A stretch of DNA of 44,438 nucleotides from a virus (taxonomy: Duplodnaviria; Caudoviricetes): the IMG/VR virus record IMGVR_UViG_3300038675_000512, positions 1 to 44,438 of that record. The stretch is one strand, 5' to 3'. Position 1 is the first letter of the stretch; each line of letters starts with the position of its first letter. Below the pieces are notes generated by a model. The model was not told the origin of the DNA, made no database searches, and worked only from the letters and a program-made list of their open reading frames with translations. This document shows positions 7,128 through 44,438 of this stretch, in pieces. The position numbers and the translations under genes were made by a program.

Positions 7128-7159
7128 TTTTTACCACTAACAATAAAACACATACAGCG

Positions 7160-19100: not shown

Positions 19101-22100
19101 TAGGAAAGACTAATCTACCAGTTGAGGTCTCCGGTCTTGATTTTAGTTCTATCGACTGGTCACGTGATGATCTCGAGCAGCATTATGGTGATAAGCTTAA
19201 TAGGGCTGTTGCTCAGTATGACTGGTATGTAAGAACCAATACACGTAGAAGTCTTGACTTATCGCGTGTACCTGGTCAATTTGTTGAGATGCTTGGTAAG
19301 AATGGCGTTACATCACAGGCTCCACAGCTAAGGACACGCCTTATACAGAACATCCGTAAAGAGATCAATAAGAACCTTCTTAAGCAGGGATTCAAGGGTA
19401 TGCGTGTTGTTCAAGCAACAGGTATGTTCCATCAACTTTATTATCTTGAAGGTGATTCAATGGCATTCACTCGTGAAGATGCTATCAAGCATGTCTATGG
19501 AGATAAAGCACCTATTGGTGTTGAACGTTTCAGTCAAGCGGTGGAAGATAAATTACTTGAAACCTTCACTGTGCGTGGTCTTCGTGATATGAGTGTGCAG
19601 GATGGTAAAACAGTACCGGGTCAAATAATCATGCCATACATATATGCTGAAAAGTTTGGATTGAAAGAAGGTCAAAGCCTTCGTGACCTGTTCACGTTAT
19701 ACATTGGTGGTAAGGCCGTCAATATCCGTAATATGTCCAAGGGTGAATTGATTGGATTGATTGAAGATAATGGTATTAATGAAGCATTCTTCACATCTGT
19801 TCTTGCTCAAAAATACTACAAAGAGTATGGGTACGAAGGTACTGATGACATTTTACTTGATATGGCTGTGAAGATACATGAGTATGTACAGGCTGCCAAC
19901 GAAACGCTTACTACCTATGCCAACCGTGTACCTTCAAATAGGCTTGGTTCCGGTGCTATCATGGAAGTAGCTGCTATCCATTGGGGAGGCAATGAAGCAT
20001 TCATTCCTAATGGTATGGCTATCATGAATGACTCTGACTTTGATATTGACCAGTTGGCTACTTATTTCAAGGATCTATCTGCTTCTGGGATATTGAATGA
20101 TAGTGAGATATCGAAACTACAGTCTGAGATAATGGATGTTGTAAAAGATGTCTATATGAATCAAGGCACAGACAAGAATCTATTCCTTGAATCGGGTATC
20201 AATCATATCCGTAATGTTGCTGATGAGGGTAAAGAGAATGAGACCTATACGGATAATACCTTGGCCTCTATGTATAAGACCTATAATGATAACCGTGCAG
20301 GGGCAGAAGCTATTGGTATCCTTGCTAACACTCTTAGTGCTGTATCATGGTTACAGTCTATTGGTGATAACTTAGAAGGATCAATCATGGATGACAACAT
20401 TAGGAGCATTATCAGTGATAGAAAAGTTAAGGGTCGTAATTCAACAGTTGTTCGTCTTGGTGACTGGCTACAAGCAGCACTTGATAATAACAAGTACAAT
20501 ATCCTTGGCCGTTTCGGTGTTACTCCGGAAGTGGTTAATATCTTGGGTGTTTATGTTGCTGTTGGACCAAAGGCTGGTCAAGACATGAATGACTTCTTGC
20601 ATGAGATAAAGGACTTCTTCAATGATCCAGTCCTCAGTAGGCTTATCAACCAGGCAAGCATGGGTGAATCAGTCCATTATAGCAAGAAGGATAATAAGCT
20701 TTATGATCTTGTTGTTTCGACTATTGAAAAGATCAATAGTAAGAACTACCGTGATAATAAGGTGAGCGTTCAGAAGGCCAAGGATGATCTCTATGTTTAT
20801 GTCAAAGATCTTATCTTCAAGTATAATGAATTCGCCGAGGAGAATGATATGGAGCAGCTTTCTCCGGATGATTATGGCGTTGATCAATACATCCGTAGCG
20901 GTCTTATCTATAAGACGTATGCATCGGGTGATAAGGAAGTAGAAGAATATAAGAAGCTCCGTGAAACATTATATCTTGCTACTGAGGAGTTAGAAGATAA
21001 AGAGGCATTACCTAAGCTTGAGAAAATGAAGTCACTGATGATTACTGGTGATGCTCTTCGTTCATTAAGTGATATCATAACCCTGCGTAATGGTATACCT
21101 GGTAATGATAATAAGTTTGACTATTCACGTAAAAACATCGAGTTGGCTCTTGGTATGAGTGTAGCTAAATTTGGTCATTCTGGCCGTTCTCTAACCAATG
21201 ATAAGAACAATTTCGATAGGGTGCTTGATTATGCCAAAAATAACGATAATGAGATCCTTGAATATGAAGTTGATTCTGTAGAGTACAAGCGGTATGTTGA
21301 GCATCTTAAGGGTCGATTCGAAGCATTTGATCTGTATAAGGTTATACGCAGTATCCCAATGCTTGAGGTCTATCTTGAACAAATGGCAAGGGATATAAAC
21401 ATACATGGTGGTTTGTTCTTGTATGATAATCCAAATACTCTTTCTCTAGCTAAGGAGTTCCTTGACAAGGTCAGAAAGAACGATTTCCCTTATTCAAACA
21501 ATAAGGCGTTGTTCAATAAGGCCATAACGATGGTTGTCCTTGATCAGTGGTTTGCATCTTTATCTAAAAAAAGAAGGATTGTTTATATGGCGGCTCCTAT
21601 TGGTCAGAACATGCAGCTTGGATATGATAACCTATCACCATATAAGAGACTTGATATGGCTAAGGTTGAAGACAGACAAAAGTTATCACTTCAAATGTCT
21701 AACTTCATAACTTTCTTTGATGAAGAGTTCATCAGCCGTGAGCAAATGGAGATGTATTTTGAAAAGATGGTACCTCCTGGTGATCGCAATATCTATGAGG
21801 GTATATCAAATGCTTTCTATGATGCTGATAATAACTTTGTCGGGAATAAGTTTATCAATATGCTTCGCTCTATTGGTCGTGGTGAAAGGTTGTACGTCGG
21901 ATTGATGAGTGATACTGCTGGCATGACAGAGCAAGAACGATTGAAGCTTAAGAGTGAATTTGCCAGGTTGCCTATATCTATCCAGGATATATTCAGGTAT
22001 AACGAGATGATCGTTAATACCCTCAATTATCACAAGGGTAGCATATCAGATATCATGGGTCTGGATGCCTTCAAGTATGGTCTTAATGATATTTATGAGT

Positions 22101-23407
22101 CTGTTACAGAAAGCTTCAGAAGGGGAGAGCATCAGGTGCTTACAGATGATAATATCAAAAATAGCTTTTTCGATTTCTTGGCTCTTAAGATAGATGCCAC
22201 CCCTTATGTCAAGAATAAGATGAAGAATGTCCTTACTGATCCATTCTATATAACAACGTTTGTCAATGAAGATAATCAGCGTTATGGCAGAAAGGTAACA
22301 TTCAAGCAGAACGCTTCCGGAACAGCTTTTGAGCAGATATCTATGATTTATAATCGTGCCGGGTTCTCAGCATTCAATAATTCCGTATCAACGAATATGG
22401 ATGTTATTAGTGTTCCTGCTGATGGCGCTGAACAAATCTATAAGGGTGAGCCTTACATTAAGACTACTGTTGAACAGCACAACTATAAGAATGGCTTCTA
22501 TATGTTAGATAACGGGATGGTTGTCAAACTAACAACTATGACAAATAATTCTGTTAAGCTTGAAAAGGTTGAAGATGATGATATTGAAGCTGCACGTAAA
22601 GCTGCTTATGATGTCATTGATCAGAGGGGTAATAACACTGTTATTGTTAGTGTGAATAGTGGAGAAGGTGGTTCAATGATTGCTCCACCTAATGCAGAGG
22701 CAAGATTTGCTGCATTATCTATCTATGCTGAGCGTCCATTTACTCTTAAGGGTGGTCGTATTGTTGGATACAATGATGATATGACGTTTAACAGTATCAA
22801 TGAAGCTATGATATGGTTCCGGGTAAGCCTTATGAAGCGTTTCAGCAACAATAGCGAGATCCAGAAGCTAAAGCTTGATGAAAACATTACTGATCGTGTT
22901 CATGCATACAATAAGATGAATAAGCTTCTTGATATAATCATATCCAAGAACAAGGACAAGGATATGGCTACTGCTGTCATGCGTACCAAGAATAATTTGT
23001 CTAATCTTGCTAAGTACATAGTATCTGTTTCCATTCTTTCACCGATAGATGCTTTCAAGTATGATAAGGATATTGTTAGTAGTCACTTAGCCATGCGTAA
23101 GGGCACAAACGAGACACTTAATCGTTTCTTCCCTGAACGTGGTGAAGAAAGCCTTACGCATTTCATCTTGAATAGTGGTAAGAATGTTGATGATTTCTAC
23201 AATAGGGAAAATCCAATTCTATTGGTTGATGATATCAAACCTACCACAACAGTCAGCAAAGAAGATCTTGAATATATTGCTTCCGGGTATATGAAGTCTT
23301 CTGATATGACTGATGAGGATATAGCTTTCCTTAACAGTATTATGTCGTCTGAAGCAGATGATGCATCTTTGCAGAATGAAGAAGAGAAGAATAACAAACA
23401 ATGTTAA
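7160..23407 (+). CDS. Giant virion-associated DNA-dependent RNA polymerase polyprotein (with SF1 helicase and zincin domains)
   Basis: ~5,415 aa from the likely ATG at 7160. Catalytic NDSDFDIDQ (DFDID at 20036-20050) is preceded by NRVPS (~19922), with TDGQSF at ~18326. DFDID is the motif of crAss-like phage RNAPs such as phi14:2 gp66. It also carries GDYGTGKT/WIVDEGS helicase motifs and HETFH. Confidence 0.9.
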   Translation: MSQPKAIDLLGYALENNYSIDKALNVLDVGDQIILQDKEAYSNYVENPENPNSLNAKEFDIAYAKAKALKNVYDKGFEYRMTDPSWIYTEKALNIYTPGRIAEGSHVSHTPLTFSSINNGPGRVMSDNQYAYSLSEYAVPDPKLVDGYRYEKKKPGWEFEGKYVFHPDPRNGGESSILVQLDRGDDSFGYEQLSTFFGMPSDYSTNVIINSFKNIIDAGARFGKSAANVVAGLSNIATDDMAIFNEDEDYTKYIQKLMMYISGNKMHEKRLKDALEKNDKAELLDLFNYLEHTMDIGRRNQLKEMRHPERWVQRNRAMNNIIGYFEGLEHNKSEFYKNTSALEDWRSLIYNTSQVVGDLAIQLGAGVITGGSMAAFTGIGTIQAVGSFYESMRDAGFDDRTIGVAMAAALPMVAASEYVVGKMWAFKSLDNQFAGELKREIKQTVNQTLKDYGGKVTTEGAVKLGKDMGKKFLSSKAFKNATTKPAVAKLVDVGKAVGLEVPQETFEDMGYNFINWVVEKMKPEYYGEDITTGITEVYGKQGIINPEQMLETAVLTALATGFNDGIRKINDPYYKRENLEKVRDIQRSGWVADQFIDGNIGVFTKMAAEESKKENGAFGPKNMKLSEMGIEPIVVSAEEAVRYKDYSIGTAQPDGSLLIDNVADMNIKDFVDEVETIGLVMQRHKLDNARDLNNIMLRQIYDANGKLMASNALKNAVAYDKAQEAYEAKKASMSVEGYELNDADKKELDTLESNVKRTKAALDYYIKHEAGTSYSEAINDSMKSMLTSYDQAVALARRDLGADFDKDVKKGDLKRVKAVVDHYNKLLQTSEHYLHLKKTYDLMNSFRDNIEQQRAAKLEELNGYYSGEKPYDGSKTIEAYEKASEVLERYLANQKINGQEASSILEELNLEDVMSVQQDIARINPTEMNPVIERFSGLFDRAKANLSNLVAINEANTAFYKSLEEGQGNNPFIANIIQAINDADASIDGKLPELNSINGYAEWAGNADKNAVKEVEKLYNRYRAFNNENRYDEIASLNKLNNAKVSTSPVYNEEAEYKFKLAEEIASLSTGKTITDAYNLLIEETQKQLDESLAYVTAIKDGVDPYTLEQRNIQEDKNIIDSYMSIINELKTAKVISERLHGQDNFNKHSSADEQEFVENMATGSIGEGFNSTLSNIEEKYDEFKRKSGLDALSSARKSILTGMLIHAHQAKTLLWMESLGLEIGTFITAEQKEALTRLVVTEEIMKNEGELTDAERKIFDNGRKAIVDVMTVLHKHKDKLFGNSKNSDKLYEPIRLLAENIAKTSTSDEIRLPLSFNSHDGKFTSVRLKEENHATKKMEPKIVSDVNELRYVSSQLTPIEATQSADNKVKMEAIVHYVNLLVQLDGALSAQQIMSKRKLLYDPLKNYNVDVSTYEQEVVEDSIIAFESGSRVLSQIEAFSYKAIAANNKKPLSSTAMIPNAIIIPGDYGTGKTKQVIYNALKILELSKAHKGGAVYFFSPSEKLRNDMQKLFNPDGKKVDKFNITSKIETLDGLDLTKNQTWIVDEGSLLTEKTRQALVDASQKSKGKLRIIIMADMNQMRPKNDKGGYPSIMERAPKTAMLSEQWSTASQMIKKHTDFWKRQINTNRAMNSTISIISLPMTYHKEVDGVLKGVQYFSSSNDVYTAFNASKNESKALVFYDINDLKAFSANNPGMQDIINKGMAFVLLPDGADERHIIQGLRAEEVYIMTYYGDMKEIGMSRASTAMYTAIGRSSGYVGINMSDQAKTYTETDPLKMSATSVGDEASTIRILNEKRENLRKEIARNQEFVLGDEYIKPSISEKPEMPDDRDELITTTGSIVINDGQNNINLSYHTTRVQEEDEYDEYLFKLNGTDIGLTSLRVNATMQEISDAATRLYADYTNQKAPKTKVKEVATPYDDPILGKTYGTDPDINAMDNPETPEQVRKSQAIAWEKGSGLYGTTYNVIVPDGVDHKTMNLREVRAMHAFLIQERERLGLTLSLKYLRKGNAINKDGNMQTYDDMLLIRAQTESYKALKSRINVIKLNDLKDGSVKNVIRRLKAIKNIDEFQKAFNAYTYVSALALPTQRPVLGKESPMTISTAGGRDIDEQTIIDGYAAYDGPEKAMVINQRNAQIAISRLRNRGREMHDSSQNNEITIGNVENISSSRSRVEYGNTLKPLDDVLENGDVTIDISRGLTVYDDKGRFMVYVTHSPYKDAKSSGERVTVYASKLDPNKVANQKSEDLDAINTISDYDKPLSGDPVVKRIYGSAMELFISTYAYQILLNNRNIIKTKLPEYSDYVEFSGKYVNPVGSTLKEQKDNLETIINLIYGDWAKYLHTPIIIKNNIPQLGPTSSYNTYAKHVGYPHYYFTIEGVSSSETNVESESKSNRKKRARPQESSADAFDTDFTTEKESSKALKRMLGGHFASDMLDIHEGMISIDGMRATGLMKDGRIMLASFAGRVRMSTPYHETFHVVWNYLLDPEAKVRYEQEAKEKAYEMTGKRLEGIDLEEWMAGDGFAKYAIARDKANKKPTLFQRFMTWLKDLVGFAHKNAKTLEGLYDDIYTGRYAKKATQATFGTSETFFEEAEDVEEEYEETDDELYEEKQDRIDRYNTLVQSLPTMRDNVIRAVDITTMALHAYSPLSNDPAFGTETINEAIDRVRKESKEIEDEYGSMPIVVKRGGVDVETTIKDVKPEEVDNIYDKTISGSTEEQRKEAQANYRMWYLNRKDNIDTILEHMMPTWNAKNNTFGRGKVVRDAFDWTNADPMNDGLNAAIRLQLKMIPAMKVSKVNGKTVHSYNMEDMRMVDERVMNQVMKDVGTVASKIYDGRKIDDGFSRLDAFKEAIEEVMKTYGRQLNDDGTYRSRYTEALAAFNAKFFSGSDSYFIDEFNDGKMYSLYDLASKHLNGERKLDEKRVQGIINFLVALANVNSSYIKNNNSKVTVKGNEKIGFTYTFTEYGNNIYESTRQRIKDELNTKLTDGLFIDRNKIKRFHDRIHVSDKGNISIGGGRMDTERAIKFISIEKDKYVFNVGNRFVTSGTMLTKQEVDEIIAHIHEIQNVLGLGNKVITDNVLRQFIEAQSWDELKGAHTASLSGGIQGEMTPREFIAAFLANTIYSYHAQNSVSKVSIAIGGKKYEKHASLTDHVLEVEAFLESLDHDDRKNQIYLNNNAVTLDELKEGIVKAASPLSEKVNDYVKKLGVQGIYNSYSSIDGESMTSMGYPFPIPSQFYTAINAIAHEAASQAGLATGVQVFRADGKPQHVLQQKNKFNEMIDGAGQQIKVIANSIGEMKRVGFNDYLSVSKEAKKVSPFVSSSGEVLSPYLLNLVEGKESENGMHLKHIQDMYGMRRDYGGFTRGTDDLTTTDMMIMGIQAFLSNLTKSSYRYQRITTPIMTIADTGRIYHMTHQMNGKAMFYLSGKGRNKMILINEDVILKQLELIAKKVDRRVQLSYDGFIGLISELNDKFGSDGFMIALPIKGNLKQTRTPSRAGFISNVDKQIAAALNAVSADVRQKIIDYVQQSNLDKTSVVKLIGNDGFGIGHTAADAIPNKSAGESIYNSSNRKAIIKAANDSKMSKEQKYKLIVDLFLNDYKATAKYMEQHNVTDSQHLKDILALGTTSQPFSGKTVNDGLFAYYLAFHITNEAFSDINGGVADYRDLYDRVKRTGVLNTPTINLSTDVTIDGNNVGSLPKKGYAITINDVEYKTILDGKNEEVMKRGTDGQSFISGLWRKFYDMSAGGRDYSVTGNGSMIKTLYIHRDPLRGGVSIIKHAGKFITQDDFMNNRAYYNMQMDMLASQDNHLPEGFSEREDLIGTELENFSWLDTFESLLDKGLTFDEAMNEMHQLVIRSQEYGEDVYNALVESICYGFNTENTRKAGLKAINRYNPLDNTGNRYPEGGLVSEDLYYDSMGIILSAEQPLDDSKPQAPFAQQEAFFGVSGATLTGELQQKWGDNPGVAISKIKKKMYDIASKQLSERIGKTNLPVEVSGLDFSSIDWSRDDLEQHYGDKLNRAVAQYDWYVRTNTRRSLDLSRVPGQFVEMLGKNGVTSQAPQLRTRLIQNIRKEINKNLLKQGFKGMRVVQATGMFHQLYYLEGDSMAFTREDAIKHVYGDKAPIGVERFSQAVEDKLLETFTVRGLRDMSVQDGKTVPGQIIMPYIYAEKFGLKEGQSLRDLFTLYIGGKAVNIRNMSKGELIGLIEDNGINEAFFTSVLAQKYYKEYGYEGTDDILLDMAVKIHEYVQAANETLTTYANRVPSNRLGSGAIMEVAAIHWGGNEAFIPNGMAIMNDSDFDIDQLATYFKDLSASGILNDSEISKLQSEIMDVVKDVYMNQGTDKNLFLESGINHIRNVADEGKENETYTDNTLASMYKTYNDNRAGAEAIGILANTLSAVSWLQSIGDNLEGSIMDDNIRSIISDRKVKGRNSTVVRLGDWLQAALDNNKYNILGRFGVTPEVVNILGVYVAVGPKAGQDMNDFLHEIKDFFNDPVLSRLINQASMGESVHYSKKDNKLYDLVVSTIEKINSKNYRDNKVSVQKAKDDLYVYVKDLIFKYNEFAEENDMEQLSPDDYGVDQYIRSGLIYKTYASGDKEVEEYKKLRETLYLATEELEDKEALPKLEKMKSLMITGDALRSLSDIITLRNGIPGNDNKFDYSRKNIELALGMSVAKFGHSGRSLTNDKNNFDRVLDYAKNNDNEILEYEVDSVEYKRYVEHLKGRFEAFDLYKVIRSIPMLEVYLEQMARDINIHGGLFLYDNPNTLSLAKEFLDKVRKNDFPYSNNKALFNKAITMVVLDQWFASLSKKRRIVYMAAPIGQNMQLGYDNLSPYKRLDMAKVEDRQKLSLQMSNFITFFDEEFISREQMEMYFEKMVPPGDRNIYEGISNAFYDADNNFVGNKFINMLRSIGRGERLYVGLMSDTAGMTEQERLKLKSEFARLPISIQDIFRYNEMIVNTLNYHKGSISDIMGLDAFKYGLNDIYESVTESFRRGEHQVLTDDNIKNSFFDFLALKIDATPYVKNKMKNVLTDPFYITTFVNEDNQRYGRKVTFKQNASGTAFEQISMIYNRAGFSAFNNSVSTNMDVISVPADGAEQIYKGEPYIKTTVEQHNYKNGFYMLDNGMVVKLTTMTNNSVKLEKVEDDDIEAARKAAYDVIDQRGNNTVIVSVNSGEGGSMIAPPNAEARFAALSIYAERPFTLKGGRIVGYNDDMTFNSINEAMIWFRVSLMKRFSNNSEIQKLKLDENITDRVHAYNKMNKLLDIIISKNKDKDMATAVMRTKNNLSNLAKYIVSVSILSPIDAFKYDKDIVSSHLAMRKGTNETLNRFFPERGEESLTHFILNSGKNVDDFYNRENPILLVDDIKPTTTVSKEDLEYIASGYMKSSDMTDEDIAFLNSIMSSEADDASLQNEEEKNNKQC

Positions 23408-26400: not shown

Positions 26401-28182
26401 GACTCTCAGATCAGTCGTGAGAAGCAGCTTGCGAATATGGGTATTATTTATGAAAATGGTCAGTATCATGCTTATGACATTGAGATGATGTATATGCAGT
26501 CGAATAACCTCGAATACACCATAAAGTTTTTCAACTTAGAGACTCACCGTAATGCCATCTTTAACCGGGATCTTGTACCCATGTATAACGAGCTTAAAGC
26601 TATAGCAGCATATGCTAAAACGCTGACTGGTACAGAAATGGTCAATGCAGAGAAATATCTTGATGAATACTATCAGTATGTCGTCAATCGTAAACATAAG
26701 GATGATTATGCTACTGATGCTCTTACTAAACGTGCAGCGCCTATTGTTCGTGGTCTGCTGGCATTAAACACATTTGTCAGTATTGGTTATAGACCGGTGA
26801 CATGGATCAAATCAATGTTCTTTAATGAACAGAACTCTCTTATTGGTGCTCTTGCTACGAAAGCTGCTAATTGGGGTGCTGTGACCAATGAAGTTGACCT
26901 ACCATCACCTGGTGATTTTCATAAAGCACATGAGTTGATGTTTACTGAACTAAAGAAATCATGGCGTATTGCTGAGCGCTTTCAGATTATCAACAACCAG
27001 GAACGTGATATCCTTGAAAATATGGATAAGAATATCACTGATAAGCATTTTGCTAAGCGTCAGATAGCTCACTGGGGTAACCACTATGGTGATGCTGCTA
27101 GTAGAACAATGACTCTTTTAGCGTTCATGATCCATGATGGTTCTTATGATGCATATAGCTACGATGCTCAGCAAGATGAAGTGTTATATGATCCCAAAAA
27201 AGACCGGCGCTTCTTCAATGAAGATGGTACTTACAAGGAAGGTATGGAAGCAGTCCACAATACTATTATTGCTGACCAGATAGAGCAGGGTCTTGTTGAT
27301 ATGGTTGATGGTAAGCGTGTACAAGCTATAGGCTATGACTTTGTTGAGATCAATAAGCGTATCAAATGGTATGCAGACAAGTATATCATCGGCGCTATGG
27401 ACCCCAACCAAAAGACCATGCTTGGTAATCAATGGATGGGTGCTGCTCTTGGTCAGTTTAAGACCTTCATGTGGGATAAGTTGTGGAATATGGGTTACGG
27501 CCAGATAACCACTGAGTATGGTGGTAAGTATGTTCCTATAAAAGATAAGAATGGTGAATGGGTTGCCGTCCGTGAACAGATGCTTATCGAGGGGCAGATG
27601 CGTTCACTTGTGGAAGCTATCAAGACGTTTAAGGACGTTATCAATAAGGACAAGAAGTGGTGGGCTGATATGCCTCCTATGAGGCGTCGTAATCTTATGG
27701 AGACCGGTTTACGTACAATGATGTTGTTAGCACTCTTGTCAGCATTCGCTATGCTTACTGATGATGATGATGAGAAAGAAGAACGCGAGAAGTTCATACG
27801 TGATGTCATGCGAAGGAATAAAGACCTTACTCGTGATGAGGCTATGTCTATGTGGAAGAAGAAATCACATACTATCAGTGATGCTGATAAACGCAAGTTG
27901 AATTTCTTATGGGGTGATATTTTCCTTGGGGATACAATGACAAGCTTTTATAACAACCCATTGCCTCTTTTCCGCACGTTGATTGATGTCTATGAGCTTG
28001 CGGTGGGTAAGAATAAGGCCAAACGTTTGATACGCCTCGTAGGGCCTGCAAAAGATGCCGTATGGTTCTATAGTCTATTTGGTATCCATGATGATCCTTG
28101 GGATGGTGACCTTTCAACCAAAGAAAAGGAGCGGCTGCGCGAAGAGAGGGAGAAGGAGAAGAAGCTTGAGGAAGCAGAATAA
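23419..28182 (+). CDS. Large virion (ejection) protein with a zincin HExxH domain and a C-terminal hydrophobic helix
   Basis: STPIHEFSH at ~23917-23943, a downstream DEL.A and FFEKIWNAI. C-terminal hydrophobic segment MMLLALLSAFAML. Last gene of the + strand block. Start is ATG 23401 or 23419. Confidence 0.7.
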   Translation: MKCPNIKDKDYQRQAAVLGGQAAQEMWLRNNGQPLWLTPEGEPSKVFEGLKNALGFFNAMQAMRRAVGRGIIVNDTVTNKKVLDALIQHESMKDNNPRVMLAQMRQEATATSRALDEVVSSIQKAVPGLVIHRETSLTAEKKGVDRSLAGWVDNEGYHINIDHASLSTPIHEFSHVFMALVRARNPKLYSEIQDMLDDYINSSQIVPQIKAKWLNRDEAVLRDELIAQVAGSASVEKIKQYMVRNGIAPSDDVATKEYNNTRSFFEKIWNAIRTAIKNVFGQQVSIDSDNTLQHFFSNLTQSFLDGNGMNIDYDVMTALRDGLAPILSDDTPYLGFNENMVDEAIAEGMVKRRHASIVRGTADIPKALINNDDPTVFGGRASNWANNQNTFSEMVSRRAYTPIGSKVTYIEWMGKRFEFPVGLSKIAFHERIVADILPHHNKQIESFPSNIREIMEKNITSDRDLLDIIEDTFSDDDGNIRVDKFEVKRLVELAGGNDNVEAIMKLSELRTNAKYAKLGQLIDISTLGSDPTVVIHKAENGEFDISISDINTGDMSFDGVRTGRNRKLGARFMNDIDNPIKTNAWTNSKMDVQAAALVYTIASIKHKAEAAGVKVRIRRSGVYGISGGGKGRLRAKTIFDYKDAFHQVRSVLQHKGMQDLITNEYMKEVINDDKAWDHTDMTVSHLFELQSYYSNENLYENLSTSMRDAISGDDKTKSERIAAIRRRMNYLSQHYGIENARRDYEYQLLAKTVIELKSGWHTSTMNFNDMANATKNILNPHNVGNSIVQYASLEMEAAKQKVLRKANQFEKEINALIKEVQRARGLHTSRADEIFNRMYPEIDVIADKEYPATKEHEAIKAGQTVRMKLYNEIYHHNYPNKELIRSMLASNAITEEELNLGDFIIKNVKDLYVMSKYEKGFRNSSKYTMADAYKDVNAEYTENTIPVLPATQMQLLRGMHMKEWFKNLGSMLSKGDIMYGDLTTERFGNIGSTFDSQISREKQLANMGIIYENGQYHAYDIEMMYMQSNNLEYTIKFFNLETHRNAIFNRDLVPMYNELKAIAAYAKTLTGTEMVNAEKYLDEYYQYVVNRKHKDDYATDALTKRAAPIVRGLLALNTFVSIGYRPVTWIKSMFFNEQNSLIGALATKAANWGAVTNEVDLPSPGDFHKAHELMFTELKKSWRIAERFQIINNQERDILENMDKNITDKHFAKRQIAHWGNHYGDAASRTMTLLAFMIHDGSYDAYSYDAQQDEVLYDPKKDRRFFNEDGTYKEGMEAVHNTIIADQIEQGLVDMVDGKRVQAIGYDFVEINKRIKWYADKYIIGAMDPNQKTMLGNQWMGAALGQFKTFMWDKLWNMGYGQITTEYGGKYVPIKDKNGEWVAVREQMLIEGQMRSLVEAIKTFKDVINKDKKWWADMPPMRRRNLMETGLRTMMLLALLSAFAMLTDDDDEKEEREKFIRDVMRRNKDLTRDEAMSMWKKKSHTISDADKRKLNFLWGDIFLGDTMTSFYNNPLPLFRTLIDVYELAVGKNKAKRLIRLVGPAKDAVWFYSLFGIHDDPWDGDLSTKEKERLREEREKEKKLEEAE

Positions 28183-28203
28183 AATAATAATCATCCAGCG
28201 TCT

Positions 28204-28241
28204 AAAAAAGGGGGGAAGCCACATGGCCTCCCCTCTTCTTT
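28204..28241. terminator. Probable bidirectional rho-independent terminator
   Basis: AAAAAA-GGGGGGAAGCC-ACAT-GGCCTCCCCTCTTCTTT: a GC-rich hairpin with an A-run on the left and a T-rich run on the right, in the gap between two convergent gene blocks. Confidence 0.8.
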
Positions 28242-28277
28242 CGTGTTGATCAGAATTGTTTACAACCGATGTTACCA

Positions 28278-29822: not shown

Positions 29823-31139
29823 TTAGAATATTCCCAAAAAATGTGTAGGTCTACTGAAACCAACATAGATTGATTGCAGCTTCCTTTTATTCGTCAAGGG
29901 CTTCACCCCAAGTATGTCATGAACATCAACATAGACACCTCTTAGCGTTGATCCTTGAATCTTATAGAGCGATACGGCATAACCATAACTCACATTGGCG
30001 AAAAGCTTCTTAAAAGCCATAAAATCGCCCCAGAATTTGGTAGCAAGAGCCTCAGACTTCAATGATGCTATCTTTGAGTTATACTGTGGGAGACACTCGT
30101 CAGTAACAACATAGATTGGTTTGTCTTTATCCTTGCACCATAAGCGCCAACAATCAATATCCTCTACTGTTTCCTTTTCAACCTTCTCAACAATCATATC
30201 TTCACCATTGAAGTATATGGGTTGATCAAAATCTACAGGAGCATACTGATCATTGCCAACAATAAGCTCTCCGGGTGTAAATTCATCAGCCGCTTTAAGA
30301 CCAAAGAGTTCTTTTCGGATAACATCATTAAGATAATTGATACGCATGTTCCTATACGCTGTTATACGTATATTCATGCCATCACGGTAATTCTTAACGA
30401 AACTCTTTATAACCTTATCCTCTGTAGTCAAAGCAACACCCTTCTTTGACCTTCCATCATACTCTTGACGTATATCCTTAATAAAACTCAATGAGTTATC
30501 ACCATCAATATGTTGACAAGTGATATCACAGAGTTGGGCAATATAATCACCTTCATTCTGCCTCATCTTTTCAGTAAGAGTATACTTGTTCGGAAGATCA
30601 AATACGGAGCTATCCTTATCGGGTGAATAATCACCATTACGAGGTTTTATGGGTGGAAGCTGATGATTATCCCCAAGATAGATAATCTTTGCACCAGCAG
30701 AGCATGAATTATTAAGTATCAATCTCATCTCATCACTAACCATAGAGGCTTCATCAAAGATGATATACTTGTATCCATATATCTTACTGTTACGAAAATC
30801 GCTTGTCTTAGGAACAAAGATCATTTCTCCCCACTGGTCGTAATCAATAATCATATTTACCGCTGCAGCATAGGTTATGCTATTAGGTATATGTTCTTGA
30901 AGTACCAGCCTGGCTTTGTGAGAAACAGTAACACCAATAACACTTCTGGGGATGTAAAGCTGTTTGTTTTTATCCTCTTTGATGAAGAGTTCTTTGATTA
31001 CTGTTGTCTTGCCAGTACCACCAACACCATTAAGACAGAACTCATGAACATCCTTACTCTTATTGAATTTCTTCATCAGAGCAAGTGCTTCAGCTTGTCC
31101 GTCATTCGGTGTTATCCTTTTGAACTTTTTCTTTTTCAT
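29823..31139 (-). CDS. Dda/RecD-like SF1B DNA helicase
   Basis: Q motif (TPNDGQ), GVGGTGKT, IIFDEASM, LGDNHQLPP, LTEKMRQ, YGYAVSLYKIQGST, YVGFSR. Likely start 31139. Confidence 0.9.
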   Translation of the reverse strand: MKKKKFKRITPNDGQAEALALMKKFNKSKDVHEFCLNGVGGTGKTTVIKELFIKEDKNKQLYIPRSVIGVTVSHKARLVLQEHIPNSITYAAAVNMIIDYDQWGEMIFVPKTSDFRNSKIYGYKYIIFDEASMVSDEMRLILNNSCSAGAKIIYLGDNHQLPPIKPRNGDYSPDKDSSVFDLPNKYTLTEKMRQNEGDYIAQLCDITCQHIDGDNSLSFIKDIRQEYDGRSKKGVALTTEDKVIKSFVKNYRDGMNIRITAYRNMRINYLNDVIRKELFGLKAADEFTPGELIVGNDQYAPVDFDQPIYFNGEDMIVEKVEKETVEDIDCWRLWCKDKDKPIYVVTDECLPQYNSKIASLKSEALATKFWGDFMAFKKLFANVSYGYAVSLYKIQGSTLRGVYVDVHDILGVKPLTNKRKLQSIYVGFSRPTHFLGIF

Positions 31140-31413
31140 ATAACTTGTGAATAAGTTTAGCCATATCAGAGCGATAGTCTCTGATGATACCTCCAAGAAT
31201 CTTATTTTGTTTATTAAGGGTACGTATAAGATGATCATTTTTCAGAACAAGACGTTCCTCCTTTGTCAACTCCATAAGACCCTTCACAGTAAACTGTAAT
31301 TCTTGTATGTATGCTTCATCCTGGCCAATCTTGAATTCAAGACGTCTGATAGTCTTCTTAAGATCATCAATAAGCGCCTCATAAGGCACTTTCATTGGTG
31401 TTGTTTCCTTCAT
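31102..31413 (-). CDS. Hypothetical coiled-coil protein
   Basis: ~103 aa, overlaps both neighbours, heptad-like sequence. Confidence 0.6.
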   Translation of the reverse strand: MKETTPMKVPYEALIDDLKKTIRRLEFKIGQDEAYIQELQFTVKGLMELTKEERLVLKNDHLIRTLNKQNKILGGIIRDYRSDMAKLIHKLYEKEKVQKDNTE

Positions 31414-38317: not shown

Positions 38318-40186
38318 TTAGGGAATAAATTTAAGAGTATTGAATTTCATTGTGCCAAAGTATACAAGATATCTTGAGATAGCTCTTTCATCATCAATTT
38401 CACCATCCCTATTCTTTGCTACTTCAACGATAAGCATATTCTTCATTAATGTCGCTCTCTTGTATGATTTATAAGAACCATCCTTAGAGAGGCATTTGAC
38501 ATCAGGAAGCTTTGAGTGTTCACGTATAAGATCTTTGTGCTGACCAATGTTGTTCAATAATAGAACTATGTTAGCTGTGTCTTGTACACGTGTGGAGCCT
38601 TTCATGTTGCTTATCCTTGGCCTATAACCTTCATCCTTATTTGCTTTCTGTGCCACTTCTTTTGTAAGATGATGAACAAGAAAGATGTCAGAAGTCATAT
38701 TATCCCTGTTTGTATCAGTACGTAGCTGTTTTAGCTTTGCCATAACCTGATCCTCAATAGCTGTTGTATTACTTACAGCCTCAGAAATGTCCTTGATAAG
38801 CATGAAATTGTCAATAATAAGTAAGCACCATCTATTCTTCCTTTCCTTACAGAAGCCCTTAAACTTACTGCAGATGGTATCCATTGTGGAGGAGTCGTTT
38901 ACAAATTCTATGTCATAATTAGTGTATTTATTTGAACTCATTTCAATATTCTTCAAATCATCATCGGTAAGTGTGTAGTTACGTGATAATAACTGAGCAT
39001 CACTAAGATTAGTATCAGAAGAGATAAGACAACGGATAATCTTTTCGTCTGAATCTTCCATACTAAACCACAAGACAGATATATCCTTGTTAAGCACGAA
39101 TATTTGCTTTACCAGGTTTATCAACCATCGTGTTTTGCCAGATCCTTGCTGACCAGCAATAACGACAATATTATCCGGAGAGATGTATGCTACATTATCC
39201 AGTATCTCATCACCGGTTATAAGGTATGAGCGTTCAACTCCCTTATTGACCCTCTGTATACGCTTGATAGTTTTTTGTATTGAGCTTTGAACCTTTGTTT
39301 GTGGTTGTAAGCTTTCACGCATGCTATCAACCATTGATCCTATACGTTGGATAAAAACATCCAGGTCATTATTATCACGCTTAATGATAGCCATGGCCAG
39401 GTTGTTTAGAATCTTCACATTGTTGGTATCAATAATGAACCGCATATACTTAGACCAGTTTTTATATGGCTGCTTGATGATATTCTTCACCTCAGGAGTA
39501 GAGAGGGATAGACCATGCTTATCTACTATAGCAAGTATCGATTCTTCATCAACATTATCACTTTTTGCATGCAACGCTCTTATAGCCAAAAAGAGATCTT
39601 TATGGATGTCTTTGTAGAATAATGATGGCTGCATATTATCAATGATTGTTGCACGTGCATTATCATCATTGATGCATGCAGATAAGACAGATTGCTCATA
39701 CTGTATCAACCGGTTAATATCACTTTGATTAATATTAAACAGCGCATCCAGCTCTTTTCTGACATTATCATATACATCAACAATATCTTCCTTCCCTTTT
39801 AGTACCGTCTCTGTATATCGCTGAAAAAGGGCTACTAGTGACCGTTTGATATAGCTATCAACAATGATCATACAGTAGCGATCCAAATTGTTTACAGAGA
39901 AAACACCATTGAGAAGAGTAATAACGATTGATATAAGTTTTGGATCTCTTTCTGATAGATGTTTATTAAGTATTATTGTATCAAATGAACCTTGCTTAGA
40001 AGATAATTGCTCTATAGCTTCATAGATGATCTTATAACTGTCACGCATGATCATGTATGGTTTTACATAACCCTGAGCAACAGGTAGAAGATTTGGGTAG
40101 TTTAGAAGTACTGAAAGCATTGCTCTTTCAGCCTCTTCACCGTGATTGGGTGCTGATAAGAGTTGCTTTGTCGGCTTTTCTTTCAT
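38318..40186 (-). CDS. dnaB: DnaB-like replicative helicase with two tandem N-terminal domains
   Basis: AGQQGSGKT, WFSMED, IIDNFMLI, RPRISNMKGSTRVQDTANIVLLL, VAKNRDGE. N-terminal EAERAMLSVLL is echoed by a second YEQSVLSACI unit. Confidence 0.88.
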   Translation of the reverse strand: MKEKPTKQLLSAPNHGEEAERAMLSVLLNYPNLLPVAQGYVKPYMIMRDSYKIIYEAIEQLSSKQGSFDTIILNKHLSERDPKLISIVITLLNGVFSVNNLDRYCMIIVDSYIKRSLVALFQRYTETVLKGKEDIVDVYDNVRKELDALFNINQSDINRLIQYEQSVLSACINDDNARATIIDNMQPSLFYKDIHKDLFLAIRALHAKSDNVDEESILAIVDKHGLSLSTPEVKNIIKQPYKNWSKYMRFIIDTNNVKILNNLAMAIIKRDNNDLDVFIQRIGSMVDSMRESLQPQTKVQSSIQKTIKRIQRVNKGVERSYLITGDEILDNVAYISPDNIVVIAGQQGSGKTRWLINLVKQIFVLNKDISVLWFSMEDSDEKIIRCLISSDTNLSDAQLLSRNYTLTDDDLKNIEMSSNKYTNYDIEFVNDSSTMDTICSKFKGFCKERKNRWCLLIIDNFMLIKDISEAVSNTTAIEDQVMAKLKQLRTDTNRDNMTSDIFLVHHLTKEVAQKANKDEGYRPRISNMKGSTRVQDTANIVLLLNNIGQHKDLIREHSKLPDVKCLSKDGSYKSYKRATLMKNMLIVEVAKNRDGEIDDERAISRYLVYFGTMKFNTLKFIP

Positions 40187-42198: not shown

Positions 42199-42379
42199 AG
42201 ATAAGTTCTTTCAGATTGTTATTAGTAGCATTATGCATACGTTCATTTTCCTTACACAGAAGACAGGTGTTATCTCTTCCATACATAGATAGTGATAATT
42301 GAAAGCCACAAATAACACACTTGAATGTTATCCGTTGTAGTTTCAATAATTGCTCTTTTAATAATGCGGATTCATCCAT
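42182..42379 (-). CDS. Small zinc-finger protein
   Basis: CVICG...CLLC. Confidence 0.6.
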   Translation of the reverse strand: MDESALLKEQLLKLQRITFKCVICGFQLSLSMYGRDNTCLLCKENERMHNATNNNLKELIYEQQE

Positions 42380-42448
42380 AACATTATATTATATACTTAA
42401 AATTCAATCTCTCCTTGGCCTTTATTTTCCGCTGCGTTCATTTCAGTG

Positions 42449-42655
42449 CTATAGGGCATTTAATGAAACGCTCTCAACAGTTTCCATCACATCTTTACCA
42501 TAATTAACTCCTATTTTACGGATGCCAATTTTTTCTACCTGTTCAGGCGTTAACTCAATTTCAACAGCCCTACGATTCGGAGCGTTTAAAACCCCTGTGT
42601 GTTCGTATTCAATATAACGAGCATCACCATCATTGATTACAAATAGTATTTTCAT
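42449..42655 (-). CDS. Hypothetical cassette protein
   Basis: 68 aa. Bounded by GCTATAGGGC (42448-42457, containing its stop) and the near-complementary GTCCTATAAC (42674-42683). Confidence 0.65.
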   Translation of the reverse strand: MKILFVINDGDARYIEYEHTGVLNAPNRRAVEIELTPEQVEKIGIRKIGVNYGKDVMETVESVSLNAL

Positions 42656-42673
42656 TTTGACTAAATTAAAAAC

Positions 42674-42748
42674 GTCCTATAACATACGCTATGGGTAATC
42701 GTAAGACCGTTCCGAAGAACAGTCTTACGAACCCGAAACTTTTAGTCA
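42674..42748 (+). repeat. attC-like palindrome (right end degenerate)
   Basis: GTCCTATAAC ... GGGT-AA-TCGTAAGAC-CGTTC-CGAA-GAAC-A-GTCTTACGA-ACCC ... TTTAGTC. The extra bases are in the left arm. Confidence 0.6.
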
Positions 42749-43035
42749 ATCATATTAACTACTCTTTCGACATTGTTGCCAATTTTATTTAGCAAGTTGT
42801 CTAATCGGTTATCAATATCATTGAATAAATCAATAATGTCTGGTTGCAAATCTTTGCATTCTCTATCTCGCATAACCTGAGTATTGCACGGCGTATCCTC
42901 AGTGCGTTCAAACTTTGCAACCAGTCTTTCGCTCAGTTTTGACAATTCATCAAATCTATTAGCGGTAACATTTAATCGTTCAACAGCATTCATTAATGTT
43001 TTTTTAGCTGTTGGTTGGCATCCTAAATCGTTCAT
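42742..43035 (-). CDS. Hypothetical helical cassette protein
   Basis: 97 aa between two palindromic sites, with an A/T-rich leader before the ATG. Confidence 0.65.
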   Translation of the reverse strand: MNDLGCQPTAKKTLMNAVERLNVTANRFDELSKLSERLVAKFERTEDTPCNTQVMRDRECKDLQPDIIDLFNDIDNRLDNLLNKIGNNVERVVNMID

Positions 43036-43093
43036 AATTTTAATTGTGAGTTTTACAAAGCCCTCCCAGAGCTATATTTTAAAAAGAACAGCA

Positions 43094-43140
43094 GCCCATA
43101 ATATCGAATAAAACGCAATGCGTTTACATAGGTGTTAGGT
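43094..43140 (+). repeat. Short attC-like palindrome
   Basis: GCCCATAAT-ATCGAA-TAAAACGC-AAT-GCGTTTA-CATAGGT-GTTAGGT. It is similar to 44402-44438, and the GTTAG box holds the stop of the next gene. Confidence 0.6.
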
Positions 43141-43389
43141 ACAAGCTGGAATGTGCATCCAATGAGTAGGTTTTGGAGCATCCCACGCAAACAGCGAACC
43201 AATCAACGGTATTCTTCCAAAGATGGCAACTGAATACCATCCGCCAAGCATTTCTCTTTCCAACCGCACCAAAACCTGAATGTCATTTGGCGGTGGAGTT
43301 GTATTTATATCAAACCGACCATCAGCTAACACAGTGTCAACCGCAATAGTGGGGTTTGTGGTTTGCGAAGTTTTGTTCTTTCTATTCAT
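43135..43389 (-). CDS. DUF551-like protein
   Basis: PPNDIQVLV...PTHWMHIP pattern. The first ~22 codons are encoded inside the palindrome at 43324-43455. Confidence 0.65.
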   Translation of the reverse strand: MNRKNKTSQTTNPTIAVDTVLADGRFDINTTPPPNDIQVLVRLEREMLGGWYSVAIFGRIPLIGSLFAWDAPKPTHWMHIPACT

Positions 43390-43455
43390 ATTCGTTTATT
43401 TTGATAGGCTATTACTTTCTAATCCGCTACATGCGGTTACACTCAACGTTACCTG
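43324..43455 (+). repeat. attC-like palindrome (best conserved copy)
   Basis: AGCTAAC-AC-AGTGT(C)AACCGCA ... TGCGGTTACACT-CAAC-GTTACCTG: a 12-bp stem with one unpaired C in the left arm. Confidence 0.72.
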
Positions 43456-43709
43456 CCATTGGCACACGCCAACGCAAAATCAAACGCAATTATCATATCA
43501 TCATGTGGTTCTTGCAGGTTATATTTTCTTTTAATTCGTTTAGCCAAAGTGCGTTTTCCCGCCCTCAAACACTTTCTGTAAATTATTTCAGCTTTACAAC
43601 GCTTACCGTACTCCGTCAATTCTTCAAACAAATCAACTACAGGTAACAATGTATAACAATCATTGCTACGTAAGTGGTTTTCCATAAGTCTTTTCGTTTT
43701 ATCATCCAT
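43449..43709 (-). CDS. Hypothetical cassette protein
   Basis: 86 aa from ATG 43709. Its stop lies in GTTACCTG (43448-43455) and its start lies inside the palindrome at 43640-43770. Confidence 0.65.
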   Translation of the reverse strand: MDDKTKRLMENHLRSNDCYTLLPVVDLFEELTEYGKRCKAEIIYRKCLRAGKRTLAKRIKRKYNLQEPHDDMIIAFDFALACANGR

Positions 43710-43770
43710 TGTGCTATATTTTAAATTTGTACTATTAATCTGCAACGCTTGTTATGCTAGCCGTTATTCC
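43640..43770 (+). repeat. attC-like palindrome
   Basis: CAGGTAAC-AAT-GTATAACAATCATTGC ... GCAACGCTTGTTATGC-TAGCC-GTTATTCC, with 13/16 complementary arms. Confidence 0.68.
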
Positions 43771-43967
43771 TTCACCCTCACAAACACAACAGGCTCGCCA
43801 TCTTCACGCCTTACTGCGCCACATTCGCCTGCTAGGCTTCGGTTCGTCTGGTATCCACAAAAAGGAGCATGCCTGTAATAGCATCCAGAACACAACCCTT
43901 GGTCTTTTCTTACTTCAAGCGTAACGCTCCCGTCTTGGAAACGTTCGCCAATTGGTCTTGTTTTCAT
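43764..43967 (-). CDS. Small Cys-rich hypothetical phage protein
   Basis: 67 aa, CSGCYY...FCG...ECG..RREDGEPVVF. Its stop lies in the GTTATTCC box. Confidence 0.65.
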   Translation of the reverse strand: MKTRPIGERFQDGSVTLEVRKDQGLCSGCYYRHAPFCGYQTNRSLAGECGAVRREDGEPVVFVRVKE

Positions 43968-43979
43968 TATTTTTCGTTT

Positions 43980-44008
43980 TAGCCTCTTTAAGCCTGGCTG
44001 GGGCGGTT
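43980..44008 (+). repeat. 29-bp direct repeat, copy 1
   Basis: TAGCCTCTTTAAGCCTGGCTGGGGCGGTT, 28/29 identical to 44372-44400. Confidence 0.9.
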
Positions 44009-44359
44009 TGGGTGTTTAATATGTTCGACAACTCCATTAGCATCAGGTTTGCCCCATTCACGTTTTTTGTTGATTTCTAATTTTTCCCGTGTTAATTCAA
44101 GCAGGTTTTCTGCTGTCAATCCAAAATGGTGAGCAGAATCGAGTAGTAGCATAAAACAGTCAGCATACTCCATTTTTGTTTTTGAGAGTTGTCTTCTAAA
44201 CTCACCAACGCCAATAGCGTGCGTGTAATCTAATGCCTGAATAAGTTCATCAACTTCTTTTTTCAAATGATAAACTATTGCTGGATTTCTTTGTCCATCT
44301 CCAAAAGTGACATCAGACCACGCTGAAATGTCATTCATTAAATCTTGTAGTTGTTTCAT
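43988..44359 (-). CDS. dATP/dGTP pyrophosphohydrolase-like protein (DUF550 / MazG-like all-alpha NTP-PPase)
   Basis: WSDVTFG...HLKKEVDEL...MEYADCFMLLLD...KLEINKKREW. Likely start 44359. Confidence 0.8.
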   Translation of the reverse strand: MKQLQDLMNDISAWSDVTFGDGQRNPAIVYHLKKEVDELIQALDYTHAIGVGEFRRQLSKTKMEYADCFMLLLDSAHHFGLTAENLLELTREKLEINKKREWGKPDANGVVEHIKHPNRPSQA

Positions 44360-44371
44360 AATATTTGTTTG

Positions 44372-44400
44372 TAGCCTCTTTGAGCCTGGCTGGGGCGGTT
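44372..44400 (+). repeat. 29-bp direct repeat, copy 2
   Basis: TAGCCTCTTTGAGCCTGGCTGGGGCGGTT. Confidence 0.9.
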
Positions 44401-44401
44401 G

Positions 44402-44438
44402 TGTAAAGCGCAATGCGCTTACATCGGTGTTAGCAACC
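44402..44438 (+). repeat. Short attC-like palindrome lacking its left (AAC) end
   Basis: TGTA(A)AGCGC-AAT-GCGCTTACA-TCGGT-GTTAGCAACC, paralogous to 43109-43140. Confidence 0.6.

Follow-up and report, generated by a model that had tools for sequence, protein, structure and literature searches.

Phage gene cassettes, probably integron-like and built back to front, with exchange of hairpins between genes

The stretch of DNA analysed here (44,438 nucleotides, hereafter the window) is a linear virus record, IMGVR_UViG_3300038675_000512, that is about 52% complete. Its minus strand holds a block with genes for a DnaB helicase (38318-40186) and a Dda-like helicase (29823-31238), and positions 42449-44438 are occupied by a row of small minus-strand ORFs, the contig ending inside this array. 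On the plus strand, a 5427-aa ORF followed by a 1593-aa ORF takes up 7124-23407. No match to positions 42380-44438 was found among the INPHARED phages. The host of the phage is likely a member of the Bacteroidota, as suggested by the organism names of most of the genome matches listed (80) for the site pattern and by the start-region signature described below. The features of the array are as follows, with the plus strand taken as the 'top' strand of the sites.

42448-42454: mutated box GCTATAG, left end of the array
42449-42655, minus strand: cassette ORF, 68 aa; ATG 42655 outside its hairpin, stop TAG in the mutated box
42677-42747: compact site; box CTATAAC, unpaired AA at 42697-42698, R' box mutated to TTTAGTC
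42742-43035, minus strand: cassette ORF, 97 aa; ATG 43035 outside any hairpin
43096-43140: short decayed site; left box mutated to CCATAAT (AAT at 43100-43102), stem TAAAACGC/GCGTTTA, R' box GTTAGGT at 43134-43140
43135-43389, minus strand: DUF551-like ORF, 84 aa; stop TAA in the R' box 43134-43140, core from Leu21
43330-43389, minus strand: 20-codon leader of this ORF, formed by the loop and one arm of the site 43324-43454; A at -3, -6, -12 and -13 of the ATG
43324-43454: long attC-like site, 131 nt; R''-like AGCTAAC at 43324-43330, R'-like GTTACCT at 43448-43454
43135-43448: cassette unit 1 (gene and its hairpin); outer flanks drifted apart
43449-43709, minus strand: helical ORF of no known family, 86 aa; stop TAA in the R' box 43448-43454
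43647-43709, minus strand: 21-codon leader of this ORF, formed by the loop and arm of the site 43641-43769; second in-loop ATG at 43685
43641-43769: long attC-like site, 129 nt; R''-like AGGTAAC at 43641-43647, R'-like GTTATTC at 43763-43769
43449-43763: cassette unit 2 (gene and its hairpin); outer flanks complementary, CAGGTAAC at both ends
43764-43967, minus strand: ORF, 67 aa; stop in the R' box of the site 43641-43769; D1 repeat ahead of the ORF; no recognised hairpin
44401-44435: half site of the short family; R' box GTTAGCA at 44429-44435, D1 repeat in place of the left box

Both long sites score at least 15 on the minus strand with an arm-pairing finder anchored on AAC/GTT, a score reached by one site in total across 200 dinucleotide shuffles of 42300-44438. 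Their whole-site folding z-scores are not significant (-0.69 and -0.42), as the loops are long and A-rich; the compact site at 42677-42747 has a strong inner stem, with a z-score of -4.9. Arm-to-arm folding of the window sites occurs on the minus strand only, and the minimum free energy of the 43324 site is not below that of other plus-strand folds; among viral sites, the coding strand is the more stable one in 313 of 343. The 43324 hairpin belongs to a family with 87-88% identical members in loci L001-L004. The main crossover would fall between G43448 and T43449 in the 43324 site, with a minor one between 43330 and 43329, and between G43763 and T43764 in the 43641 site.

The initial annotation held that unpaired bases always lie in the left arm. 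C43338 and the AA at 42697-42698 are indeed unpaired bases of the left arm; the rule itself fails, since A43431 is unpaired in the right arm and the 43641 site, which has unequal spacers, has no unpaired bases. Whether there is an extra A at 43110 and at about 44406, as reported, varies with the alignment; both positions lie in short sites whose left box is mutated or missing. With one gap allowed per site, no bulge was detected in 255 of 343 distinct viral sites, and the commonest was a T on the right arm (50/343).

Four boxes of the array are decayed, being mutated or lost (42448, 42741, 43102 and the left box of the 44429 site), and relatives of the short site at 43096-43140 have CCATAAC, seen at a loose contig end in run X7. 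Contigs of runs X4 and X11 have loose ends behind 42744, and loose ends are also found behind the 44432 box. A 47-nt direct repeat, D1 (87%), stands at 43962-44008 and 44354-44400, ahead of the ATGs at 43967 and 44359. The many loose contig ends and the high summed depth at its edges suggest that D1 fronts other genes in related DNA; it is a second kind of module boundary, and is absent from all 215 loci collected below. A piece of about 40 nt upstream of the ATG at 43035 (43042-43083) is common to many other contigs, with loose ends on both sides, and TTTAAAATATAGC from this piece recurs in the loop of the 43641 site. A gene for dATP/dGTP pyrophosphohydrolase (PF04447) at 43988-44359 sits within the array, with a 72% identical homologue in L012 that lies outside any hairpin found there; contigs of runs X4 and X5 carry an in-frame 18-nt insertion at 44205. 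In a contig of run X2, from a lower-depth relative, both cassettes (43115-43751) are missing and 91 other letters stand in their place, and no clean excision joint was seen in the contigs of eight runs. A candidate site at 28115-28248 was rejected, as it overlaps a GC-rich hairpin between convergent genes, and so was a weak Rfam FMN match (19.7 bits, with the cut-off at 66.2). Promoter patterns, both sigma-70 and Bacteroidetes, occurred at chance level only.

Patterns made from these sites collected 94 viral loci, one usable metagenome locus and 120 genome loci (215 in total). L006 was a chance match and was left out of all counts, another site family was sought in the viral data with too strict a scan, which yielded one locus outside the counts, and a search with the short-site pattern gave no match. 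As the loci were gathered with polar patterns, the counts describe this attC-like site family only. Shared segments with both ends interior numbered 66, of which 15 were at least 97% identical (eight classed automatically by script, the rest by eye). In 12 of these 15, representing 8 distinct units, the coding-strand AAC stands at both ends; one of the remainder starts 12 nt before AAC and two have one end at GTT. Unit 2 of the window recurs whole, in an X4 contig from another study that covers exactly 43445-43766 with five differences. These breakpoints show that each mobile unit extends between two successive coding-strand AAC boxes and usually carries hairpin, start, leader, core and stop along as one, and that the stop codon can form the last three bases of the unit as delimited in this way.

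The flanks of the units agree with these limits. Across 304 viral units, the flank past GTT pairs better with the unit's own stop end in 254, with that of the neighbour in 27 and equally well in 23; complete pairing (5/5) is seen with the own end in 185 viral units and with the neighbour in three. The 86 chromosomal units behave alike (own 75, neighbour 4, tie 7). For unit 1, the flanks of which have drifted apart in the window, the far end in L005 matches the window R'' start, read as GTTAGCTG.., at nine of nine positions. In the circular form, position 8 past GTT is complementary at a frequency of 0.06 in viral and 0.00 in chromosomal units and positions 9-11 pair again. The result is an outer 12-bp stem with a conserved mismatch; in the family inspected, the coding strand has G.T at this mismatch. 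Stops are concentrated either at the box or 11-13 nt ahead of it.

The polarity of the sites can also be read from G.T pairs, which favour the coding strand over the other strand by 435:39 (268 viral sites, search seeds removed); in classical attC it is the bottom strand that is richer in G.T pairs (PMC5027507). Within 260 viral intervals, which were not de-duplicated, genes run hairpin-first in 158 and against this order in five, with 97 unclear. The 37 scorable genome loci, likewise not de-duplicated, comprise 21 with classical genes only, seven with inverted genes only, two mixed and seven unclear, and our guess is that the seven inverted-only loci are prophages or binned phages. Taken together, the breakpoints, flank pairing, G.T bias and gene direction argue that the genes are inverted relative to classical cassettes and that normal shuffling keeps the leader with its gene. 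That the genes lie antisense to attC polarity was the central claim of the initial annotation, which had drawn it from the bulges; it now has support from breakpoints, circular complementarity and chromosomal gene direction, all of them independent of bulges.

Hairpins are also exchanged between genes, as shown by comparisons of related loci, with the join placed by the alignments at the coding-strand GTT and the outer flank staying with the gene. An alignment of homologues of the 43135 protein, as had been proposed, shows that the leader varies independently of the core, with the break at x-[VL]-L. In L005 this core recurs with a body 90.9% identical, from TGTT to CTAAC and in the same phase, behind a hairpin that is 53.2% identical to the window hairpin (background median 56%); at the join, window and L005 have no more than TGTTA in common. 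The base after GTTA in L005 follows the hairpin family and not the core, so the join may lie a few bases past the box. The L005 leader and further leaders stand on the DUF551-like core in P0016, P0018 and P0020. The hairpin family of the 43324 site, for its part, heads three unrelated cores, and a second hairpin family heads eight different cores in eight loci. Two further swaps are clean: L062 and L210 share a body (98.1%) behind hairpins that are 69.9% identical and of different families, and in L003 and L004 unrelated bodies stand behind one and the same hairpin (100% over 284 nt), with each flank complementary to its own far end. The initial annotation had set whole-gene shuffling and the making of N-terminal chimeras as alternatives that depend on polarity. 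The main crossover does keep the leader with its gene, but leader-core chimeras exist as well, joined at the other box. The loop of the segment shared by L003 and L004 (L004 4941-5224) holds a whole 81-aa ORF, the ATG of which lies in a conserved TATG of the arm; the two phages have this hairpin in identical form, whereas the short bodies that follow GTT differ.

Not all joins are of this kind. Same-family hairpins on unrelated bodies keep identity above background for 10-17 nt past GTT, and 11 of 26 hairpin families have a single self-complementary flank class (15 have more than one), so that many joins are gene replacements inside a kept backbone and not crossovers after the G of GTT. The largest hairpin family keeps one backbone around unrelated ORFs. 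A second process therefore replaces ORFs inside the backbone.

We consider it probable that these are integron-like phage cassettes built back to front, hairpin then gene, with hairpins exchanged between genes. The coding strand would fold and recombine as the 'bottom' strand, and an Xer-like tyrosine recombinase without the IntI insertion would cut it between A and C. There is a slightly better than even chance that the exchanges arise from top-strand recombination of two sites, as such a crossover would yield two well-formed cassettes with their hairpins swapped; loss of extrahelical bases permits, and favours, top-strand recombination in the IntI1 system, as PMC5027507 describes. The cassettes could be inverted and the exchanges nonetheless be due to homologous or illegitimate recombination in shared arms, or to independent creation of cassettes from one gene, which we regard as a serious possibility if well short of an even one. 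The family identity past GTT and the backbone kept around unrelated ORFs are what it would predict, and the arms share sequence beside the box in two of the three clean swaps (L062/L210 and L003/L004), so homologous recombination could have made those. Even in these two, however, the change falls at the box and the flanks match their own far ends, the window/L005 join offers TGTTA only, and four leader types meet the DUF551-like core at x-[VL]-L. Within the back-to-front reading, both strands of one hairpin may be in use, the bottom strand moving whole genes and the top strand swapping start-plus-leader modules; this is put forward tentatively, at a little under even.

No recombinase (PF00589) was matched in the window contig, which is 52% complete, neither at the expected left end nor elsewhere, and the attI-like motif is absent from the window at up to two mismatches. 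The phage loci L003, L016, L020 and L063, however, encode a tyrosine recombinase of 266-268 aa just past the array on its downstream side, and a conserved attI-like motif precedes the gene. This motif occurs in 6 of the 215 loci and lies directly upstream of an intact recombinase gene in four. In an unrooted tree built from 11 sequences, the four phage recombinases form one group (support 0.996), and they share 32-44% identity with most of their chromosomal counterparts. All eight array-linked recombinases tested score below the TIGR02249 cut-off of 265 (138-213 bits, in two stretches), and at the VchIntIA insertion the L020 enzyme has 34 residues against 82 in 2A3V, about 48 fewer. On these alignments, the linked recombinase is Xer-like and is predicted to be without the IntI insertion. 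In phage and chromosomal loci alike, its gene is found where the array has its top-strand 5' end; in six genome loci (L109, L111, L117, L118, L126 and L167) it is transcribed towards the array, and in the phage loci in the opposite direction. With neither enzyme nor motif, and with mutated boxes, the window array would rely on an enzyme acting in trans, or may be partly frozen. With the genes inverted, transcription from a phage promoter at the far end could run across the array in the direction of attI.

The lack of a recombinase in the window contig would also suit hairpins that are mainly RNA elements, serving as processing or expression adaptors in the manner of the repeated leaders found between early genes of phages, with modules moved by homologous recombination and no site-specific enzyme. 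The arms do pair in the predicted mRNA, and D1 shows that a second repeat also marks gene boundaries. Such hairpins seem improbable to us all the same, given that identity falls to background immediately upstream of TAAC, that the flanks pair in the circular DNA form only, that chromosomal copies of the sites lie antisense to the genes, and that related arrays have a recombinase and a conserved attI-like motif at a fixed end.

The ATGs at 43389 and 43709 were found in the loops, as first described, between the arms of the sites 43324-43454 and 43641-43769, and the leader of about 20 codons said to run through the arm measures 20 and 21 codons when counted as far as the GTT box of the coding strand, which both leaders cross in the phase NNG-TTA. 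The description of cassette ORFs as beginning inside the site holds for these two and not for the ATGs at 43035, 42655, 43967 and 44359. Stops do fall in the opposite boxes (TAA at 43135, 43449 and 43764, TAG at 42449), and that at 42742, which had not been listed, is a further case. The suggestion that the site doubles as start region, leader and stop signal is therefore supported, the leaders being presumably translated.

Neither of two findings that would have spoken against this was made. True starts outside the palindromes were not found, there being no usable ATG outside the hairpins: the first lies deep in the core of the 43135 protein (Met47) and near the end of the 43449 protein (Met72). 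Nor is the leader part of the domain, as 13 of 30 distant DUF551-like homologues, the starts of which were counted by hand, begin no more than 7 residues from the first Trp. Among 12 sequences compared, Met1 and Met9 of the 43449 protein do not vary, and its homologue P0011 is without nine residues (16-24) that span the arm. The ATG is invariant in five members of the 43324 family, in which indels lie upstream of the ATG only, and 14 hairpin pairs have 11 frame-shifting alignment gaps after the ATG, yet keep the same phase at GTT in 14/14. The leaders may outlast their sites: those of the GNEANTLL family in L008 (4869-5045) and L011 (4974) persist where the matching left arm is gone, a site-derived N-terminus being kept after loss of the hairpin.

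In 291 units, the ATG lies in the hairpin only in 76, after the hairpin only in 138, in both places in 49 and in neither in 28. The 76 in-loop ATGs have A at -13/-12/-11 at frequencies of 0.86/0.71/0.79 and at -6 and -3 at 0.68, as compared with 0.32-0.44 at the same positions of 464 internal control ATGs, and this signature matches the A-enriched start positions reported for Flavobacterium johnsoniae in PMC6847099. The A-rich loop may act as a start region that is free of a Shine-Dalgarno sequence. The region -15 to +3 around the ATG at 43709 is only 0.54 unpaired in the RNA fold, and the RNA run X19 has no contig on 42980-43860, a result without bearing on expression. The idea of one reading phase at GTT for all units was rejected, the three phases being taken by 48, 26 and 2 of 76 units, and the exchange of leaders is accordingly constrained and not free; genes without an ATG of their own would survive a swap only when the new leader has the same phase.

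The window protein labelled DUF551-like has no Pfam hit itself, while 5 of 14 tested homologues pass the DUF551 cut-off and two more match with scores below it. For neither ORF were protein relatives found in the viral contig collection. An AlphaFold model of the 43135 protein is unusable (mean pLDDT 44.6), and that of the 43449 protein has a pLDDT of 48-58 in the leader and 72-87 in the core, which weakly supports a division between the two. The poor fold of the 43135 protein, together with an Arg in place of a conserved Trp, might mean that the in-loop ATGs are unused and that the genes start downstream or are pseudogenes. With the first outside ATGs at Met47 and Met72, Met1 and Met9 invariant and a strong start signature across the family, this is quite unlikely. 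Least credible of all is the reverse polarity, in which routine crossover at the coding-strand GTT would let headless ORFs borrow the start and leader of the upstream neighbour: the shared GTT phase of both window genes, the one core with different leaders and the one hairpin on unrelated cores would suit it, but it is largely refuted by the AAC ends of 12/15 near-identical segments and by flanks that complement the downstream gene's own end, and neither the mixed phases nor the 138/291 units with an ATG only after the hairpin agree with it.

The back-to-front cassettes may be set beside classical integrons, for which the comparison draws on PMC5027507. Inverted AAC/GTT boxes and paired arms are common to both, and the lengths of 131 and 129 nt are within the 57-141 of classical attC. 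So are a crossover in AAC, found here at both ends of the unit, a self-complementary circle, a folding strand that is richer in G.T and more stable, and arrays of small ORFs. Classical cassettes have the gene on the top strand with attC downstream, whereas here the gene is on the bottom strand with the site upstream, and start and leader can lie within the site. The spacers differ by 2-4 nt here, unlike those of classical attC, and the extrahelical G16 and T23/24 of the classical R''-L'' arm, 6 bp apart, were not found, the 43324 site having an unpaired G at position 15, which is often absent in its family, and a T on the other arm. Integron integrases have the IntI insertion, which the recombinases linked to related arrays appear to be without, and no attI beside an integrase was found in the window. 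PMC5027507 also notes that insertion of cassettes so as to face the promoter had not been seen; here it is the gene that is turned round, and not the site.

Clusters of attC without an integrase (CALINs) have been described in phages, including a phage of Polaribacter, a member of the Bacteroidota (Qi et al., 2023, PMC9892861). The window resembles these in that no recombinase was found in its contig, but the contig ends inside the array and the sites are attC-like and not canonical. Inverted genes, starts within sites and leader exchange are not described in the main text of that work, where sites were tested with IntI1 and not with an Xer-like enzyme. ORF-11, ORF-17 and ORF-18 of attI1 in class 1 integrons are alike in that the site supplies a start and the frame crosses the box; they belong to attI, serve the first cassette only and act mostly by translational coupling, whereas here each attC-like site may do so, in frame with the protein (PMC8876359). 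Bacteroidota chromosomal arrays (L110, L118, L140, L142 and L166) resemble the phage arrays in site pattern, in G.T bias and in the pairing of the flanks, and have a related Xer-like recombinase (32-44%) at the same array end, but their genes are classical, with 43 of 46 starting after the site and none inside, and their recombinase gene points towards the array whereas the phage one points away. The core at 43135-43329 aligns with phage proteins of DUF551 (PF04448), many of which are without the 20-residue site-derived leader. No description of an inverted cassette design was found in the literature covered, in which subscription journals are mostly not included.

These findings indicate that gene orientation in a cassette can be independent of the polarity of the recombination site, and that a protein can take both its start signal and its N-terminus from a recombination hairpin. 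As the IntI insertion is regarded as essential for integron function in PMC8138268, the linked enzyme without it allows the requirements of folded-strand recombination to be tested directly. With one hairpin on many cores and one core behind several hairpins, the acquisition of sites by cassettes becomes testable with named pairs, and shared leaders of 15-25 residues on unrelated small proteins will mislead protein clustering. If both strands of the hairpin are indeed used, the system would be a natural shuffler of N-termini and expression levels, run by an enzyme without the IntI insertion, and would offer a visible route by which new cassettes are made.
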